A stretch of 64,000 nucleotides of DNA from Candidatus Woesearchaeota archaeon (GTDB lineage: Archaea > Nanobdellota > Nanobdellia > Pacearchaeales > GW2011-AR1). Positions 8,461 through 42,965 of this stretch are shown piece by piece (within the stretch, counting starts at the first letter, position 1; the number at the start of each line of letters is the position of its first letter). The notes beneath the pieces were generated by a model that worked only from the letters and a program-made list of their open reading frames with translations, ran no database searches and had not been told where the DNA came from. The translations under genes were made by a program, and so were the position numbers. The stretch spans positions 2,568-66,567 of the forward strand of contig CAYLLR010000001.1 of NCBI GenBank assembly GCA_964384965.1, in the 5' to 3' direction.

Positions 8461-8730
8461 GTGAGTGTAATGGGGAAAATAATAGTTAAAAAGGCTGTTG
8501 TAAGGAAGCCTGGACACCTTTACTACATCGACGCTAAAGGAAACGTTTGTGAAGCTAAGATGGCTAGAGGGGGAAAGAAAAAGAAAAAGGCTGCTAAGAA
8601 AAAACCAGCTAAAAGAAAGGTTGCCAAAAGAAAGCCGGCTAAAAGAGTTGCTAAAAAGAAACCAGCTAAAAGAAAGGCTGCTAAGAAAAAACCAGCTAAA
8701 AGAAAGCCGGTTAAAAGAAAAAGGAGATAA
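8461..8730 (+). CDS. Small lysine-rich basic protein: a 35-aa N-terminal domain plus a tail of tandem KKPAKRK(A/V)A repeats. Candidate nucleic-acid-binding protein.
   Basis: Five or more tandem peptide repeats. A 31-bp exact DNA repeat at 8589..8619 and 8675..8705. Shine-Dalgarno-like aggaggtg lies upstream. Confidence 0.55.
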   Translation: MSVMGKIIVKKAVVRKPGHLYYIDAKGNVCEAKMARGGKKKKKAAKKKPAKRKVAKRKPAKRVAKKKPAKRKAAKKKPAKRKPVKRKRR

Positions 8731-9066
8731 TTTCTTAAGAAGCAATTTTTAGGGGGTTTGCTTTTTTAGAAAATTCTTCTGGGTAATATGGAGGTGTTTT
8801 AAGCTTTTTTGGTTTTTTATTTTACAATTTTTATTTTTTTGTTCTGGAAGTGTTTTGTGATGTTTTTTATTTTTTTTGTTTTGAGTAAATTAAGGGAAAG
8901 GGGGTTTGTTGTTTTTGCGAAATTTTTTTATAATGAATGATTTTTAATTTTTGGAGTCCCACCACAAGAAAAATTTTATAAATTTAGGATTTAATTTTTC
9001 AAGTTTTTTAGTGTCAATTGCCTTTTTTATTTTTGATTCTTTTAAGGTTAATTTTAAATAATTGTC

Positions 9067-37087: not shown

Positions 37088-37564
37088 CTATTTGGTTTTG
37101 AGAACAACTATATTATTCATTCCTCTTCTTTTTCTAATTATGAATTGTTTTGCCTCAAGTTTGTCTAATAAGCGAGTCATTTTTACTTTTCCAATCCCTA
37201 ATTTTTCCATGAGGTTTTTTTGAAATGCAGCATTTCCCTCACTTTGAATCAACTGGATTGTTTTTCTTTCATCTTCGTCTAACTTTGAAAGGTTTAACTT
37301 CTTCGGTCTTTCTTTTACTTTTTTTATCACTATTTTCTCGTCTGGTTTTGAAAACATTATATAAAGACCGATTGTGGCAACAACAACAACAATTGCAAGC
37401 CCAAGAAATAATTGTGCATTTGAGGTTTTATACATCACGCAATCAATTCCGTGAGTACAGGTTTCCGAGATTATTTTTTCTAACGAGTAATTAAAACCCC
37501 AAACTACAAGTGCAATCGCGGCCGCAATTCCAAGGGTTAGTCCCCCCACTTTCTTATTTTCCAT
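37088..37564 (-). CDS. Membrane-anchored winged-helix transcriptional regulator (two N-terminal TMs plus C-terminal wHTH).
   Basis: Two hydrophobic helices flanking CTHGIDC. C-terminal ..EKLGIGKVKMTRLLDKLEAKQFIIRKRRG. Confidence 0.45.
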   Translation of the reverse strand: MENKKVGGLTLGIAAAIALVVWGFNYSLEKIISETCTHGIDCVMYKTSNAQLFLGLAIVVVVATIGLYIMFSKPDEKIVIKKVKERPKKLNLSKLDEDERKTIQLIQSEGNAAFQKNLMEKLGIGKVKMTRLLDKLEAKQFIIRKRRGMNNIVVLKTK

Positions 37565-37591: not shown

Positions 37592-38332
37592 TTACTTGCG
37601 GATTTTGAAATATCCCTTTTTTTCCAATTTTGTCGCGAGATTTCTGTCTCCCTCGAGAATAATTTTCCCCTTATCCATAATATAAACCTTCTCCGGTTTT
37701 AAGTATTCCAGAATTCTTTTATAATGTGTTATAATGAGAATTGATTTCTTTTTATTTAGTGTTTTTTTTATTGCTTTTGCGATTATTTTTAATGAATCAA
37801 TGTCCAGTCCAGAATCTACTTCATCAAGAAGTATTAATTTTGGATTTAAAATACTCATTTGGAGGATTTCATTTTTCTTTTTTTCTCCTCCTGAAAACCC
37901 CTCATTAAGATTTCTTTCAATAGTTTCATTTGAAATTTTTAGTGTTTTTATTTTCTCTTTTAAATCGTTTTTAAATTTTGAAATTGAAAAATCTTTTTTT
38001 AACTCTTTGGAGGATGCTTTAAGAAATTTTCTTGTAGAAATTCCCGAAATTTCTTGGGGGTTTTGGAATGATAAAAATATCCCCTTTTTTGCTCTTTTAT
38101 CTGGTGAGAGTTTTGAAATGTCTTTTCCCTCAAATTCTATTTTCCCTTTGGTTATCTTGTATTTTGGATGCCCCATTATTGTATTTACGAGGGTTGATTT
38201 TCCAGAACCATTTGGTCCCATTAGTGCATTTATTTTTCCAAAATTTAATTTTAAATTGACCCCTTTGAGAATTTCTTTTCCTTCCACCTCGATGTGAAGA
38301 TTTTTTATTTCAAGTATTTTTTTATTTGTCAT
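37592..38332 (-). CDS. sufC: Fe-S cluster assembly ATPase SufC.
   Basis: Walker A GPNGSGKST, ABC signature FSGGEKK, Walker B ILLDEVDSGLD. Confidence 0.9.
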   Translation of the reverse strand: MTNKKILEIKNLHIEVEGKEILKGVNLKLNFGKINALMGPNGSGKSTLVNTIMGHPKYKITKGKIEFEGKDISKLSPDKRAKKGIFLSFQNPQEISGISTRKFLKASSKELKKDFSISKFKNDLKEKIKTLKISNETIERNLNEGFSGGEKKKNEILQMSILNPKLILLDEVDSGLDIDSLKIIAKAIKKTLNKKKSILIITHYKRILEYLKPEKVYIMDKGKIILEGDRNLATKLEKKGYFKIRK

Positions 38333-38333
38333 T

Positions 38334-38708
38334 TTAGTTTAATGCCTGCTTTACGGCTTCTAATGCAAGAAGCTCACATTTTATTCTGGTTGGAATTATT
38401 TTAATTCCTAAAATTTTATCCATGTCTTTTTTGGTTAACTTTTTTGCGTCTTTTATTTTCATTCCTTTAAGATTTTCTGTTAATAGTGATGCTGAAACTG
38501 TTGAGATTACGCACCCGTGCCCTTCAAATTTTGCATCTTTAATCTTTCCGTTCTTTATTTCTAATTCTATTTTTATTTCATCTCTGCATCCAATATTCTT
38601 CAATTTTTTTGAATGGGTCGCATTTTTTAATTTTCCAAAATTTGGTTTCTCAGAATAAATTTCTAATAATTCATCTTGATACATTGATTTTGTTTTCATC
38701 ATTAACAA
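38334..38708 (-). CDS. Fe-S scaffold protein (IscU/SufU/NifU-like).
   Basis: GCRDEIKIELEI... and GHGCVISTVSASLL cysteine motifs. Confidence 0.75.
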   Translation of the reverse strand: MLMMKTKSMYQDELLEIYSEKPNFGKLKNATHSKKLKNIGCRDEIKIELEIKNGKIKDAKFEGHGCVISTVSASLLTENLKGMKIKDAKKLTKKDMDKILGIKIIPTRIKCELLALEAVKQALN

Positions 38709-40099
38709 ATAGAATTTTCTATTTCCAATTCTATTAATTTGTTTAATTCAACGGCATATTCTAAGGGCAATTCTTTTATTATGGGGTTTATAAAACCAGA
38801 TACAATCAATTTTGTGGCCTCTCTTTCCGGAATTCCTCGGGACATGAGATAAAATAGCTGTTCTTCACCTATCTTTCCTATTGTGGCTTCGTGGGAAGCT
38901 TCAACTTTGTTTTCATGGATTTCCATCGAGGGAGTTGTAATTGCTTTACTTTTGTTATCTAACATTAATCCGTCACATCTCACATTTGATTTTGAATTTT
39001 TAGCCCCTTTTTTAATTTTGACCAATCCCCTATAAGAACTCGTTCCTCCTCCCACACTAATTCCTTTTGAAATAATGCTTGAAGAAGTGTTTTCAGCAAG
39101 GTGGTAAACTTTACATCCTGTGTCTTGGTATTGGCCTTTTCCTGCATAAGCTATTCCCGTATAATCTGTTTTTGAATTTTTTCCTTTTAAAATACTACAC
39201 GGATAAAGCATAGTTGTATGACTTCCTAAATTTCCATTTACCCATTCCATTATTCCATTTTCATGAACGATTGCTCTTTTTGTGTTTAAATTATAGGTGT
39301 TTTTTGACCAATTTTCAATACTTGAATATTTGACTCTTGCTCCTTTTAGAACATATATTTCTACTCCTCCCGCATGAAGGGAATTTTCATCATATTGTGG
39401 TGCAGAACATCCTTCAATATAGTGTAATTCCGAGTTCTCGTCGGCAATTATAAGTGTGTGTTCAAACTGACCCCCTTTTTTTGAGTTCATCCGAAAGTAT
39501 GCTTGAAGAGGAATCTTTACTTTTACATTTTTTGGGACATAAATAAAAGTGCCTCCACTCCAAACTGCACAATGCAATGCTGAAAATTTATGAAGATTTG
39601 GGGAAATGCATTTTGTCATAAAATATTTTTTAAAAAGTTTTTCATGCTTTTTTAGTGCAGTGTCACAATCCACAAAAATAATGCCTTTTTTTTCTAAATC
39701 TTTTTTTAGTTTATGGTAAATTGTTTCACTTTCGTATTGTGCTCCGACTCCTCCGAGAGATTTTTTTTCTGCTTCAGGAATTCCCAATTTATCAAAAGTT
39801 TCTTTTATTTCTTTTGGAACATCTTCCCACGATTTTGAATTTTTGGCATTTGGTTTAAGGTAATAATGAATTTTATTTAAATCAAGTTCTTTTAAGTCGG
39901 GGCCCCAATCCGGAAAAGATTTTTTATTGAAGATTTTAAGAGCGTTTAACCTTTTTTTCAACATCCATTTGGGTTCATTTTTGTCTTTTGAAATTTGTCT
40001 AACCAATTTTTCACTCAAACCTTCTGGACTTTTGTATTTTAAATCTTCTTTATTTGCTTTAAGAGAGTATTCTTTTAACTTAATTTTTGGCATAAACAT
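38702..40099 (-). CDS. sufB: Fe-S cluster assembly protein SufB/SufD.
   Basis: 465 aa with a beta-helix core. Gene order is sufB-iscU-sufC on the minus strand. Confidence 0.85.
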   Translation of the reverse strand: MFMPKIKLKEYSLKANKEDLKYKSPEGLSEKLVRQISKDKNEPKWMLKKRLNALKIFNKKSFPDWGPDLKELDLNKIHYYLKPNAKNSKSWEDVPKEIKETFDKLGIPEAEKKSLGGVGAQYESETIYHKLKKDLEKKGIIFVDCDTALKKHEKLFKKYFMTKCISPNLHKFSALHCAVWSGGTFIYVPKNVKVKIPLQAYFRMNSKKGGQFEHTLIIADENSELHYIEGCSAPQYDENSLHAGGVEIYVLKGARVKYSSIENWSKNTYNLNTKRAIVHENGIMEWVNGNLGSHTTMLYPCSILKGKNSKTDYTGIAYAGKGQYQDTGCKVYHLAENTSSSIISKGISVGGGTSSYRGLVKIKKGAKNSKSNVRCDGLMLDNKSKAITTPSMEIHENKVEASHEATIGKIGEEQLFYLMSRGIPEREATKLIVSGFINPIIKELPLEYAVELNKLIELEIENSIC

Positions 40100-40122
40100 A
40101 TGAAATTTGGTTCATATTTAAA
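40080..40122. repeat. 43-bp perfect direct repeat, copy 1. It spans the sufB start codon and six codons.
   Basis: ttaatttttggcataaacatatgaaatttggttcatatttaaa is identical to 41537..41579. Confidence 0.85.
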
Positions 40123-40181
40123 GATTTGGGTTAGATTTAATTAATCGGAAACTTTAAATAAAATACCCTTCTATAAGAGGT

Positions 40182-40844
40182 ATGTGGTATTTGAAATTTA
40201 AATATAAGCATAGTGATTGTATTTATGCTCCAGAGTTGAAAAGGTTGAATTTGAATGGATTTTTTCATTATCTTGGAGAATACAAAAAAGGAAGGCACAT
40301 TTATACTTCTTCAATACAACATTTAATTGGAGATGAAAAGAATATTAAGAAGTATTTTAGATATCTGAAAAATCACAAAAAAATTGTTAATTATGAAATT
40401 TATGGAAATGTAATTATCACTCTGGCAAAACATAAAAAAGAACTAAAAGTTTATGGACAGGTTTACAATCCTCTCTTTATTTATCCTTCTCCAGCTTATT
40501 TGAGTAAAGAGGGGTTTGAAATAATTGAAGTTGCTTCTTGGGATAGAAAAGAGATTGAAACCCTCGTTAATGGTATAGAAAAAACAAAAACAACAGAATA
40601 TTTCAAAATACTTAGTTTTAAGAAAGGAAAAGTAGAAGATATTTACATTTCCAGACTTCTTCCAAAACTTCCAAAAAAACAGGAAGAAGCTTTGAGGTAT
40701 GCATTTATAAAAGGATATTATAACTTTCCAAGAAAAATTAGTTTGGATCAATTATCAAAAATATTAAAAGTATCAAAATCCACTTTCAGAGAAAATTTAC
40801 GAAAAGCTGAAGCCAAGATTATTCCAAAATTAATTCTTGAGTAA
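40182..40844 (+). CDS. HTH_10 (bacterio-opsin-activator-type) DNA-binding protein.
   Basis: C-terminal KGYYNFPRKISLDQLSKILKVSKSTFRENLRKAEAKI matches the GYFD.PR...L.ELA..LGIS.ST..E.LR.AE.K pattern. Confidence 0.55.
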   Translation: MWYLKFKYKHSDCIYAPELKRLNLNGFFHYLGEYKKGRHIYTSSIQHLIGDEKNIKKYFRYLKNHKKIVNYEIYGNVIITLAKHKKELKVYGQVYNPLFIYPSPAYLSKEGFEIIEVASWDRKEIETLVNGIEKTKTTEYFKILSFKKGKVEDIYISRLLPKLPKKQEEALRYAFIKGYYNFPRKISLDQLSKILKVSKSTFRENLRKAEAKIIPKLILE

Positions 40845-40936
40845 TTATTCAAGATACCCTTTTATATAAGGGTAAAAATTTAAGTTCTTTATTTTTATAA
40901 TTCTATTGTGGTAAAAAACTATATTGGGAGCTAAAA

Positions 40937-41359
40937 ATGAAAAAAGAAATCAAAGTCAAAAAAGATGAAGTAATTGACATAAAAACAGCTGTAGGGGTTT
41001 GGAGAGAGATGGGATTAAATTTCGATCAAAGAGTTAATCTACTTGAAAAGGTTCTTGAGAAAATGATTCCAAGAATCGAAAAAGAAATTTCTGAGAAAGA
41101 ACCAATTTATAATAATAATCTTGAAATTAGAAAAAAATTTTCTGATGATTATAAAATTCAGGATTTTATCCCTTTTTATTGGGGAATGCGCTTCCACAAA
41201 GAAAGAAATAAAAAAAAGCAAAAAGAAGATTGGTTTTTTTATAAAAAATCAAATGAAGAATTTCTTCCAAGGATGCTTGACAAGGTATATAATGCTTACC
41301 ACTTTCTTAGTTTTTATGTTCCTTCAGTAATTGGAATTATGGAATATTTTAATAAGTAA
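40937..41359 (+). CDS. Hypothetical protein (cassette cargo).
   Basis: ORF only. Confidence 0.3.
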   Translation: MKKEIKVKKDEVIDIKTAVGVWREMGLNFDQRVNLLEKVLEKMIPRIEKEISEKEPIYNNNLEIRKKFSDDYKIQDFIPFYWGMRFHKERNKKKQKEDWFFYKKSNEEFLPRMLDKVYNAYHFLSFYVPSVIGIMEYFNK

Positions 41360-41536
41360 TTTTTGAATGCAAAAAATGAAACTTAATAATTTAAAAGGCA
41401 GATATCTATTAAATAAAGTAGTACTTTACTCTCTAATTCCTTCCTTAAATCTTTTTGGTGCACATAACTTAGCAAAAGAAGAATTTGAGTCTTTAGAAAA
41501 TTTTGAAAAACTTATTTGAATAAATCTTTTTCTAGT

Positions 41537-41579
41537 TTAATTTTTGGCATAAACATATGAAATTTGGTTCATATTTAAA
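41537..41579. repeat. 43-bp perfect direct repeat, copy 2. It encodes a truncated duplicate sufB start (MFMPKIKLEKDLFK*).
   Basis: Identical to 40080..40122. Confidence 0.85.
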
Positions 41580-41603
41580 TGTTGTGAGTTATTAAAAACA
41601 ATT

Positions 41604-42065
41604 TTAAACATTATAAGTTTCCGAAAAAAAATCATGTCCTATTTCAAAATTTTTTGTTATGGGAGTCATTGTTTCTAAAATGTCCTTTATATATTTTAGG
41701 GAATTGTCAAATTTTAATATATCTTGGATTTGGAGTTCTTCATTTTTTTTATAAAGATTAAAAGAAGGGTTATTTAAGTAAGGATTAACTCCTTGCAAGA
41801 TAATTCTTGATAAACCTTTATAATTTCCATGATATTGTTTCCTAATTCCTCCATTAAAAAGATCCGATTCAGTTTTTGGGTCTCCAAATAATTCAGTTAT
41901 ATAAATAAAATCTTCCTTATTTGGTTCATCTATTCTGAAATGAAAAAGGGGAGTATATTTTTCAAAATGCCCCACTATTTTTAATCTTGAAATTCCTTCT
42001 TCATGGAATCGATTACAAATTTCTTCAATAAAATATTTTCTTATTTTAGGGGTTAATAAAGTCAT
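41604..42065 (-). CDS. Hypothetical protein.
   Basis: ORF only. Confidence 0.3.
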   Translation of the reverse strand: MTLLTPKIRKYFIEEICNRFHEEGISRLKIVGHFEKYTPLFHFRIDEPNKEDFIYITELFGDPKTESDLFNGGIRKQYHGNYKGLSRIILQGVNPYLNNPSFNLYKKNEELQIQDILKFDNSLKYIKDILETMTPITKNFEIGHDFFSETYNV

Positions 42066-42147: not shown

Positions 42148-42777
42148 TCAAATCTTCCCAACTAAATTTAATCCGGGTTTAAGAGTTTTTTTCCCTGGTT
42201 TCCAATTTGCTGGACAAACTTCTCCGCCGTGTTCTTCTACAAATTTTGCGGCTTCAAGTTTTCTGAAGAGTTCATCAGCACTTCTTCCAATTGAATTGTC
42301 GTGGATTTCATAGGCCTTCAAAATTCCATTGGGGTCTATTAGGAACGTTCCTCTAAGGGCAACTCCTTCGCCCGGGATTAAAACCCTATATTTCGTAGAA
42401 ATTTCGTGGGTTGGATCAGCCACCATGGGAAATTTTATCTTTTTTATCGTCTCCGAATTATCGTGCCACGCTTTATGAACAAAAACCGTGTCCGTCGAAA
42501 TACTTAAAACTTCAGCACCAATTTCTTTGAATTTTTCGTACTTTTCGGCCATTTCACCAAGTTCAGTTGGACAAACGAATGTAAAATCGGCAGGATAAAA
42601 AAATAGAATTACCCATTTTCCTTTGTAGTTTTCTAAAGAAATTTTTTTAATCTTTTCTTCATAGAATGCTTCAGCCATAAATTTTGGGGCTGGGCTATTT
42701 ATTGCCAAGAAATTTTCTTTATGATTTGTTTTTTCATCCATTTTCATTTCCTCTTTCAAATATGAAATATTTTTCAT
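42148..42777 (-). CDS. Peroxiredoxin (AhpC/TSA family).
   Basis: FTFVCPTE peroxidatic Cys motif plus the conserved W/HDNS fold blocks. Confidence 0.9.
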   Translation of the reverse strand: MKNISYLKEEMKMDEKTNHKENFLAINSPAPKFMAEAFYEEKIKKISLENYKGKWVILFFYPADFTFVCPTELGEMAEKYEKFKEIGAEVLSISTDTVFVHKAWHDNSETIKKIKFPMVADPTHEISTKYRVLIPGEGVALRGTFLIDPNGILKAYEIHDNSIGRSADELFRKLEAAKFVEEHGGEVCPANWKPGKKTLKPGLNLVGKI

Positions 42778-42965
42778 ATATAAATCTTTTGGAAGATTTT
42801 ATTTTCAAAAAATTAAACCGATTATTTCAAGAAATGTTCTTTAATAAATGGAACTATTTTCAAAATAATTCCTTTAATTATCTTTCTGAGGCTTTGCGTA
42901 TCTTTTAACTCCTCCCCAAAAATCTTTATAAATCCCTTTCTCTTCATTGAAAAAAGGAAAAGAGG

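Follow-up and report, generated by a model that had tools for sequence, protein, structure and literature searches.

Archaeal transcriptional repressors such as MDR1, LrpA, Phr and SurR generally act through operators that overlap the TATA box or the transcription start. Integrated archaeal viruses and plasmids of the SSV and pNOB8 types are bounded by direct repeats of the attachment (att) site. To our knowledge, almost nothing has been described about transcriptional regulation in Nanoarchaeota and Pacearchaeota. In bacteria, the suf operons controlled by SufR, a [4Fe-4S] protein of COG2345, combine a dedicated repressor with a palindromic operator and thereby tie iron-sulfur (Fe-S) biogenesis to stress (bioRxiv 10.64898/2025.12.26.696629; PMC8371249). 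Here, we analyzed 64,000 nucleotides (nt) of contig CAYLLR010000001.1 from a Candidatus Woesearchaeota archaeon (positions 2,568 to 66,567; this 64-kb stretch is referred to as the window), in which a perfect 43-bp direct repeat brackets two genes next to sufB. The first-pass annotation had read this arrangement as the site-specific insertion of an element that regenerates the 5' end of sufB. The analysis points elsewhere. The 43-mer is most likely the promoter-operator-start module of an Fe-S/redox regulon, and it was probably doubled because the operon of the ferredoxin gene Fer2 and the suf genes was split, rather than being the scar of a mobile element.

The 43-mer TTAATTTTTGGCATAAACATATGAAATTTGGTTCATATTTAAA is present in exactly two copies in the window, at 40080-40122 and 41537-41579 on the plus strand, with 0 mismatches and a spacing of 1457 nt. 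None of 100 shuffles produced a match, and the ungapped likeness of the two copies reaches 53 nt at 92%. Read on the minus strand, the repeat has the form TTTAAATA-TGAACCAAATTTCATATGTTT-ATGCCAAAAATTAA, which comprises a consensus archaeal TATA box, a palindrome (PAL), a start and about five codons. The copies and the reading frames that they head are as follows:

40080-40122, minus strand: the sufB promoter module (copy 1 of the 43-mer).
Parts of copy 1, minus strand: TATA box TTTAAATA at 40122-40115, PAL at 40117-40098, ATG at 40099-40097, ATG at 40093-40091, then CCA AAA ATT AA.
38702-40099, minus strand: sufB, with MFMPKI derived from the repeat; native SufB homology (KLKEYSLKANKEDLK...) starts exactly at the repeat edge; SUFBD_core, E=1e-85.
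41537-41579, minus strand: copy 2 of the 43-mer, with the same TATA box, PAL and start; syntenic with the Fer2 promoter of relatives and heading only a 14-codon stub.
41512-41556, minus strand: the stub open reading frame (ORF), MFMPKIKLEKDLFK followed by a stop, 14 codons; its MPKIKL-EK(D) resembles the Fer2 N-terminus of relatives (MPKIKLNEKE...).

Several descriptive claims of the first-pass annotation were thus reproduced. The repeat is perfect at both positions, and is so in four independent assemblies; copy 2 leads into a dead-end remnant (MFMPKIKLEKDLFK and a stop after copy 2); and the HTH_10 regulator and the 140-aa ORF between the copies both lie on the plus strand, opposite to sufB.

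PAL is a perfect palindrome, ATATGAA-N6-TTCATAT, which overlaps the end of the TATA box and extends to the start codon. The sufB ORF reads MFMPKIK..., and the NCBI record places its start at the second ATG (MPKIK). The A of this second ATG lies 30 nt past the first T of the TATA box. A sufB mRNA transcribed from copy 1 would be leaderless, because this TATA-to-ATG spacing fits the standard geometry of archaeal promoters; the HTH_10 gene has the same 30-nt TATA-to-start spacing. PAL sites with at most one mismatch number three in the window (0.11 expected), and all three lie at the 5' end of a minus-strand gene, namely sufB, the stub and a peroxiredoxin (Prx) gene. The third site and its gene are:

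42760-42779, minus strand: third perfect PAL, ATATGAAATATTTTTCATAT, with TATA box TTTATATA; predicted promoter/operator of the peroxiredoxin gene.
42148-42777, minus strand: peroxiredoxin (AhpC-TSA, with 1-Cys Prx C-terminal domain), beside PAL and in the same gene neighbourhood as in relatives.

The longest Prx ORF begins inside the palindrome. Its true start is likely the ATG at 42747, which follows a GAGG leader, and the protein would accordingly be 199 instead of 209 aa long. The conserved TATA/PAL core accounts for about 28 of the 43 nt of the repeat. The canonical distance between TATA box and start, with a palindrome overlapping this interval, is thus present, as expected of an archaeal promoter/operator module. 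PAL is also over-represented and placed at functionally linked genes across genomes, as expected of a regulon operator.

The window has a GC content of 30%, and its relatives are metagenome-assembled genomes (MAGs) of Nanoarchaeota, Woesearchaeota and Pacearchaeota (DPANN archaea). A metagenome scan with ATATGAAANNTGGTTCATAT yielded, among the matches listed, mostly unrelated chance ones, with L095, L101 and L129 as the useful loci. The shared promoter cc-aaa-cTTT(T/A)(T/A)ATATGAACCAnnTTTCATATGTT could be aligned in the window and in L009, L095, L101, L129, L153, L154 and L155, and the TATA/PAL/start layout is common to 13 promoters from 8 genomes. This PAL promoter stands before sufB in L009, L095, L101, L129 and L155 (every related locus retrieved). 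L153 and L154 have a compact, co-directional gene order, in which an ArsR-type HTH_5 gene is followed by cysteine desulfurase, DUF1858, Prx, Fer2, sufB, sufU and sufC; there, Fer2 overlaps sufB and a single PAL promoter lies before Fer2. PAL or near-PAL sequences of the relatives are also located at the ArsR-type gene, at Prx and at a Thioredoxin_4/DsbA-like gene (L101). These further sites are:

L101, 923-942 and 12476-12495; L153, 342-361; L154, 2271-2290: PAL sites at the membrane-anchored Thioredoxin_4/DsbA-like gene and the ArsR/SmtB-type gene.

In L101, L153 and L154, the ArsR-type gene is leaderless and has a PAL of its own at the start. Its product (~103 aa, HTH_5) exceeds the NCBIfam cut-off for ArsR/SmtB, and the gene heads the cluster of cysteine desulfurase, DUF1858, Prx, Fer2 and suf. 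The most plausible role of PAL is that of operator in an Fe-S/redox regulon, and guilt by association would make the autoregulated ArsR-like protein of the relatives its most likely binder.

PAL resembles the operators of archaeal repressors in that the palindrome overlaps the TATA-start interval and recurs at related genes, including the gene of the regulator itself. Unlike those operators, the motif and its predicted regulon (Fer2-sufBUC, Prx, DsbA-like and ArsR-like genes) belong to uncultured Nanoarchaeota and Pacearchaeota; a literature search found no description of this DPANN regulon or of the PAL motif. The presence of PAL on the leaderless promoter of the relatives' own ArsR-type gene is reminiscent of ArsR/SmtB autorepressors, which use inverted-repeat operators. 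The difference is that the ArsR-type gene is absent from the window and that PAL is assigned to it by association. In common with SufR systems, the locus has a putative palindromic operator at the suf promoter. In contrast to them, the promoter is archaeal, the candidate regulator comes from another family, and the operator is common to the ferredoxin and peroxiredoxin genes as well.

A membrane-anchored MarR/DUF7343 winged-helix protein recurs beside the suf/redox cluster, at 37088-37564 (minus strand) of the window and at 979-1473 of L101, 10900-11391 of L153 and 11144-11401 of L155. The L101 gene directly adjoins a PAL promoter. This protein is a second candidate regulator. In the window, it closes the suf unit, which continues beyond sufB as follows:

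38334-38708, minus strand: sufU/NifU_N.
37592-38332, minus strand: sufC.
37088-37564, minus strand: membrane-anchored MarR/DUF7343 winged-helix protein.

The coding end of the 43-mer, ATGCCAAAAATTAA (MPKIK), matches a conserved Fer2 start: the Fer2 genes of 6 of 7 relatives begin with ATGCCAAA(A/G)(A/G)T(T/A)AA, which encodes MPK(I/V)K, and those of L101 and L095 have the exact 14 nt of the 43-mer. None of the 119 SufB homologues starts with MPKIK. The native N-terminus of SufB is M-x-x-G-K-L-K-E-I-Y-S-K, to which the window SufB aligns from K7 only, i.e., from the repeat boundary. Since MPKIK is found at the start of Fer2 in the relatives and is absent from SufB starts, the repeat duplicates the start of Fer2, which was acquired by sufB. 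The view that copy 1 contains the ATG and first codons of sufB therefore holds for the start, which lies inside the repeat, but not for the codons, which are of the Fer2 type and not of the sufB type. The opposite direction, with the sufB start copied elsewhere, was rejected given the N-termini of Fer2 and of the 119 SufB proteins. The repeat/sufB junction coincides with a microhomology, AAR YTN AAN GAA, that Fer2 and sufB both have at their 5' ends. Either gene conversion or a small duplication probably placed the same module, as copy 1, onto sufB.

Copy 2 occupies the exact syntenic place of the Fer2 promoter of L009, and no Fer2 gene is present in the 64-kb window. The sequence lends moderate support to copy 2 as the remaining stub of a Fer2 gene that was lost while its promoter stayed in place. 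Directly after the stop of the stub, T5 and T4 runs resemble an archaeal terminator. The region behind copy 2 is:

41360-41536, no strand: 177-nt spacer that separates copy 2 from the 140-aa gene and holds a doubtful 50-aa ORF (41367-41519, plus strand); the Fer2 body sits here in relatives such as L009.

The 177-nt spacer and the intergenic pieces showed no significant likeness to Fer2, to sufB, to the compared related loci or to the rest of the window. A likeness to Fer2 noticed by eye in frame 3 (SSFAKLCAP...KRFKEGIRE) was dropped after it failed shuffling.

Compared with the compact Fer2-sufBUC operons of L153 and L154, the two plus-strand genes of the window are extra DNA wedged into the operon. 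Similar slots are filled in other relatives. In L009, the gap between Fer2 and sufB holds an HTH_10 gene and an unrelated 127-aa gene, both on the opposite strand, and the PAL pair (50 nt at 86%, with a 30-nt perfect core) is 1469 nt apart. The gap of L155 contains an unrelated 214-aa gene, with a 32-nt PAL pair at 88%, and that of L095 an unrelated 160-aa gene, with a 51-nt PAL pair at 78% whose Fer2 copy is degenerate. In L101 and L129, the spacer between Fer2 and sufB measures 150-420 nt and holds no gene; a perfect PAL is found before sufB only, and the Fer2 promoter is degenerate, without a recognisable palindrome. Where genes separate Fer2 from sufB (L009, L155 and L095), there are two PAL copies. 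In the window, the extra DNA is indeed bounded by the direct repeats, whereas the homologous pairs in these three relatives enclose Fer2 together with the insert, and not the insert alone; a pair, with the degenerate Fer2 promoter as one member, also exists without any insert in L101 and L129. The arrangement of the relatives has the geometry of two promoters and two transcription units, and not that of a target-site or att duplication.

On this evidence, the locus would have arisen as follows. Genes of the opposite strand (the HTH_10 module and the 140-aa gene) would have come between Fer2 and sufB in the lineage of the window. The sufB gene would now be driven by a copied Fer2 promoter and would begin with the first ~5 codons of Fer2, joined in frame at the AAR YTN AAN GAA microhomology. 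The body of Fer2 behind copy 2 would have been lost, leaving an orphan promoter and the 14-codon stub. The 43-nt identity would reflect recent non-reciprocal copying, either a small segmental duplication or gene conversion between the paralogous promoters, which are separated by 1.46 kb, and the 43-mer would be neither an att core nor a target-site duplication. A repressor bound at PAL is expected to block access of TBP, TFB and RNA polymerase; the best candidate is the ArsR-like protein of the relatives, which is not encoded in the window.

The two genes between the copies and the palindromes that accompany the first of them are:

40182-40844, plus strand: HTH_10 (bacterio-opsin-activator-type) regulator, 220 aa, leaderless; Pfam PF04967, E=1.5e-16.
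40167-40180 and 40858-40871: HTH_10 palindrome CCTTnnATAnnAGG, over the start of the gene and just past its stop, before the A/T-rich promoter of the next gene.
40937-41359, plus strand: 140-aa ORF, downstream of the HTH_10 operator pair; no family match.

The HTH_10 domain lies at the C-terminus (residues 165-214) and scores 60.3 bits against a cut-off of 23.1. More than 100 homologues were found, 45-70% identical and all of ~220 aa, on contigs of up to 130 kb and in many unrelated chromosomal contexts that lack flanking direct repeats. Judged by these contexts, HTH_10 is a conserved chromosomal gene, apparently single-copy, for a predicted DPANN regulator. Only two CCTTnnATAnnAGG sites occur in the window, against 0.15 expected. 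A palindrome pair of this kind (consensus ACCTTcTATaTAAGGT) was seen in every readable context, i.e., L004, L008, L009, L012, L014-L023 and L025-L027. The second copy follows the stop and is itself followed by an A/T-rich, TATA-like run, and the downstream gene varies by genome. HTH_10 with its palindromes looks like a portable unit of a regulator and a regulated promoter. The HTH_10 protein probably regulates itself and its downstream neighbour, and not PAL, because its own palindrome is found at the start and past the stop in every context. PAL as the binding site of the adjacent HTH_10 protein was rejected on this ground, i.e., the different, gene-linked palindrome, and also because HTH_10 loci away from suf lack PAL. 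The 140-aa ORF has a sole detectable relative, a 35% tblastn match next to the HTH_10 gene of L014, and the second gene of the insert is not homologous between the window (140 aa) and L009 (127 aa). Near the HTH_10 locus of L012, another Nanoarchaeota MAG, at least three head-to-tail copies of a 37-nt unit (AAAATCAACCAAGGGCACTTCGTGATGTTTGATTGGA) occupy 8527-8663.

The main alternative is that the two genes were inserted as a cassette by recombination at the promoter. An in-frame deletion of Fer2 would first have produced a single [PAL + MPKIK]::sufB fusion, into which a 1.4-kb circle then integrated. The circle, perhaps released from a related strain when two PAL sites recombined, would have carried a homologous PAL/Fer2-start segment besides HTH_10 and the 140-aa gene. 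Its integration, by a trans-acting recombinase or by homologous recombination of the Campbell type, would have duplicated the 43-bp homology, and the slot would be a hot spot of cassette exchange. The perfect repeats exactly at the borders of the extra DNA agree with this scheme, as do the compact relatives without any gene between Fer2 and sufB and the occupation of the slot by unrelated opposite-strand genes that differ by lineage, with HTH_10 in two non-sister lineages. A microhomology-mediated deletion of Fer2 would also yield the exact junction of copy 1 and sufB. We nevertheless consider this course of events unlikely. HTH_10 genes stand in 16 other contexts without flanking direct repeats, including the pair of HTH_10 and a gene like the 140-aa one in L014, and a duplication made by insertion would not bracket Fer2 together with the insert, as the PAL pairs of L009, L155 and L095 do. 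Past copy 2, the sequence is weakly Fer2-like (L-EKD vs LNEKE), which is unexpected for the end of an element, and all four near-identical assemblies contain only the filled form.

Markers of a mobile element are also lacking. No recombinase or transposase was detected by Pfam in any ORF between 35.1 and 46.3 kb, in agreement with the earlier statement that no integrase or transposase is present; the block contains only HTH_10, the 140-aa ORF and the doubtful 50-aa ORF. A scan of 40000-41700 for terminal inverted repeats gave only weak A/T-rich pairs, none of them at 40123 or 41536. The cassette had no matches in PHROGs, IMG/VR, INPHARED or PLSDB, so the comparison with virus and plasmid databases that the first-pass annotation had proposed lent its insertion model no support. 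Scans for tRNA and Rfam families found nothing near the locus. The GC content of the cassette (0.25-0.28) is indistinguishable from that of its A/T-rich surroundings. Nothing in its predicted content marks the two-gene block as a mobile element, though it arrived at some point. In L155, a 279-aa tyrosine recombinase with Phage_integrase domains is encoded at 1344-2183, between Prx and Fer2; it may be an XerA-like housekeeping protein or be related to a mobile element.

The locus shares with SSV- and pNOB8-type integration a perfect direct repeat of ~40-50 bp at both ends, one copy of which preserves the 5' end of a host gene. It differs in lacking an integrase, a tRNA target and mobile-element genes, and in that the repeat is a regulon promoter with a third copy and with paralogous pairs in relatives that lack the cassette. 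The insertion originally proposed is therefore not borne out: the repeat has at its core the promoter/operator of a regulon, which is found again at Prx, the duplicated codons are those of Fer2, relatives have PAL pairs around Fer2 plus insert, and HTH_10 is a conserved chromosomal gene found in many contexts without flanking repeats. What stands of that proposal is that the two-gene block is extra DNA and that a copy of the repeat supplies sufB with its promoter and start. The evidence points to the options that it had listed as alternatives, an unusual duplication or a conserved promoter duplication.

The similarity of the two copies was compared within and between genomes. The window copies are identical at 43 of 43 positions (49 of 58 over the wider module), while orthologous sufB modules agree at 36-45 of 58. 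The paralogous identity in the window (43 nt) and in L009 (30 nt) includes the spacer and the TATA variant, and it is at the spacer and TATA positions that orthologous PAL copies differ between genomes. In L155, the sister of L009 on the SufB tree, the two copies are not the same. Paralogues of one genome, as in the window and in L009, are thus more alike than orthologues, as in concerted evolution. The outgroups, none of them close, assign MPKIK to Fer2 and not to SufB and are compatible with either gene conversion or a small duplication. The 15 nt beyond the core encode protein in one copy and have no function in the other, yet they are identical and therefore indicate recent copying.

A different origin of the 43-nt identity, also improbable and slightly more so than cassette insertion, is an ancient architecture, [PAL]Fer2-(ORF, HTH_10)-[PAL]sufB, shared by the window and L009, in which purifying selection on two functional promoters kept the copies identical. 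The two loci have the same gene order, spacings of 1457 and 1469 nt and a similar distance from PAL to HTH_10, and ~28 of the 43 nt are conserved TATA/PAL core. Selection would not, however, explain the identity past the core (ATGCCAAAAATTAA...), and since orthologous PAL promoters vary at the spacer and TATA box, selection alone does not freeze them. Furthermore, the SufB tree does not pair the window with L009, whose sister carries another insert, and the second genes of the two inserts (140 and 127 aa) are not homologous. The synteny with L009 as proof of an ancestral arrangement was likewise weakened by the SufB tree, on which L009 groups with L155.

We give about the same low credence to a more general possibility, that PAL promoters act as recombination sites and that the Fer2|sufB and Prx|Fer2 junctions are a hot spot of cassette exchange in DPANN archaea. 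If so, small promoter-bearing modules like HTH_10 and its operator pair would be cut out as circles by recombination between PAL sites and re-inserted at PAL in other genomes, and each insertion would re-equip the downstream operon with a promoter. Genes would then move into operons without killing them, in an integron-like manner that is either recombinase-independent or XerA-dependent.

The weakest explanation, a repeat collapsed or mis-joined in the metagenome-assembled contig, can practically be dismissed: although De Bruijn graphs branch at both 43-mers and their shape formally fits a circle together with an empty site, the junctions are crossed by two JGI contigs of separate samples, and the 43-bp repeat is far below sequencing-read length. 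One of these contigs (Ga0256751_1019712, 2445 bp, from another sample and 99.4% identical, i.e., 0.6% divergent) covers both copies collinearly, and the other (Ga0256750_1039316) reads from the 140-aa gene via copy 2 into the 153-aa gene that follows. Two Logan contigs end 30 nt into each 43-mer, because an assembly graph with k=31 must break at a 43-bp repeat. An exact-protein look-up of SufB and SufU gave no match, because assemblies break at the repeat and the NCBI SufB begins at the second ATG. The arrangement of the locus is no assembly artefact. The gene beyond copy 2 is:

41604-42065, minus strand: 153-aa ORF between Prx and copy 2, with a T5 run after its stop.

Several observations weigh against a split operon with a copied promoter. 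The repeat coincides exactly with the borders of the extra DNA, as integration would also give. Past ~4 extra codons, no significant likeness to Fer2 was detected behind copy 2 by tblastn (word size 2), by local alignment of DNA or by three-frame peptide alignment against shuffles, and because of this the reading of copy 2 as an in-situ Fer2 stub rests on the synteny with L009 and on the MPKIKL-EK match. The nearest non-self SufB proteins are 81-83% identical, and neither an empty site nor an intermediate with an intact Fer2 was seen; the order of events cannot be reconstructed because no relative is closer than this. Two lineages that the SufB tree does not place as sisters have HTH_10 between Fer2 and sufB, which could hint at targeted placement. 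Finally, no gene for a PAL-binding (ArsR-like) regulator was located in the window, and we infer the operator role of PAL and the transcription starts from sequence features.

Copying between paralogues is in line with other features of this DNA. The 43-mer shares with the concerted evolution of nearby paralogues a higher identity within than between genomes, abrupt tract edges and the presence of other homogenised tracts. It differs from usual gene conversion in that the unit is only 43 nt long, consists of a promoter and first codons, and rewrites the N-terminus of SufB with that of the ferredoxin. A 300-nt direct repeat at 94% (947-1246 and 1603-1902) lies in tandem plus-strand genes (676-1272 and 1266-1928). 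Their products are paralogous secreted/surface proteins (676-1928), in which the C-terminal ~93 residues are identical and the N-terminal halves have diverged. The sharp boundary of this repeat suggests a gene-conversion tract. In addition, 10 of the 14 differences from the JGI strain L002 (Ga0256751_1019712) cluster within 145 nt of the HTH_10 gene (40544-40688), which looks like a short, imported recombination patch. Short-tract recombination is, to judge from these tracts, visibly active in this organism.

Fer2 and SufB of two relatives share 27-28 nt at 89-93%, encoding YETFEKLGI (L155, 3762-3788 and 5297-5323; L095, 520-547 and 1765-1792). This stretch could be a coincidence of native motifs and biased codon usage, or it could have arisen by conversion between Fer2 and sufB.

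For the claim of a mobile element, the outcome is deflationary, as no new kind of mobile element emerges. In its place, the candidate operator ATATGAA-N6-TTCATAT links Fe-S assembly (Fer2-sufBUC) with a peroxiredoxin, a DsbA-like oxidoreductase and an ArsR-type regulator. The locus would be a natural example of how a split operon survives, with promoter, operator and first codons copied before the stranded genes. It also calls for caution in genome scans, where gene conversion between paralogous promoters can leave perfect direct repeats around genes. Elsewhere in the window, a coding repeat rich in Lys, Ala and Pro, with a periodicity of 15 nt (AAGAAAGCTGCTAAA-like units), extends from 8581 to 8733.

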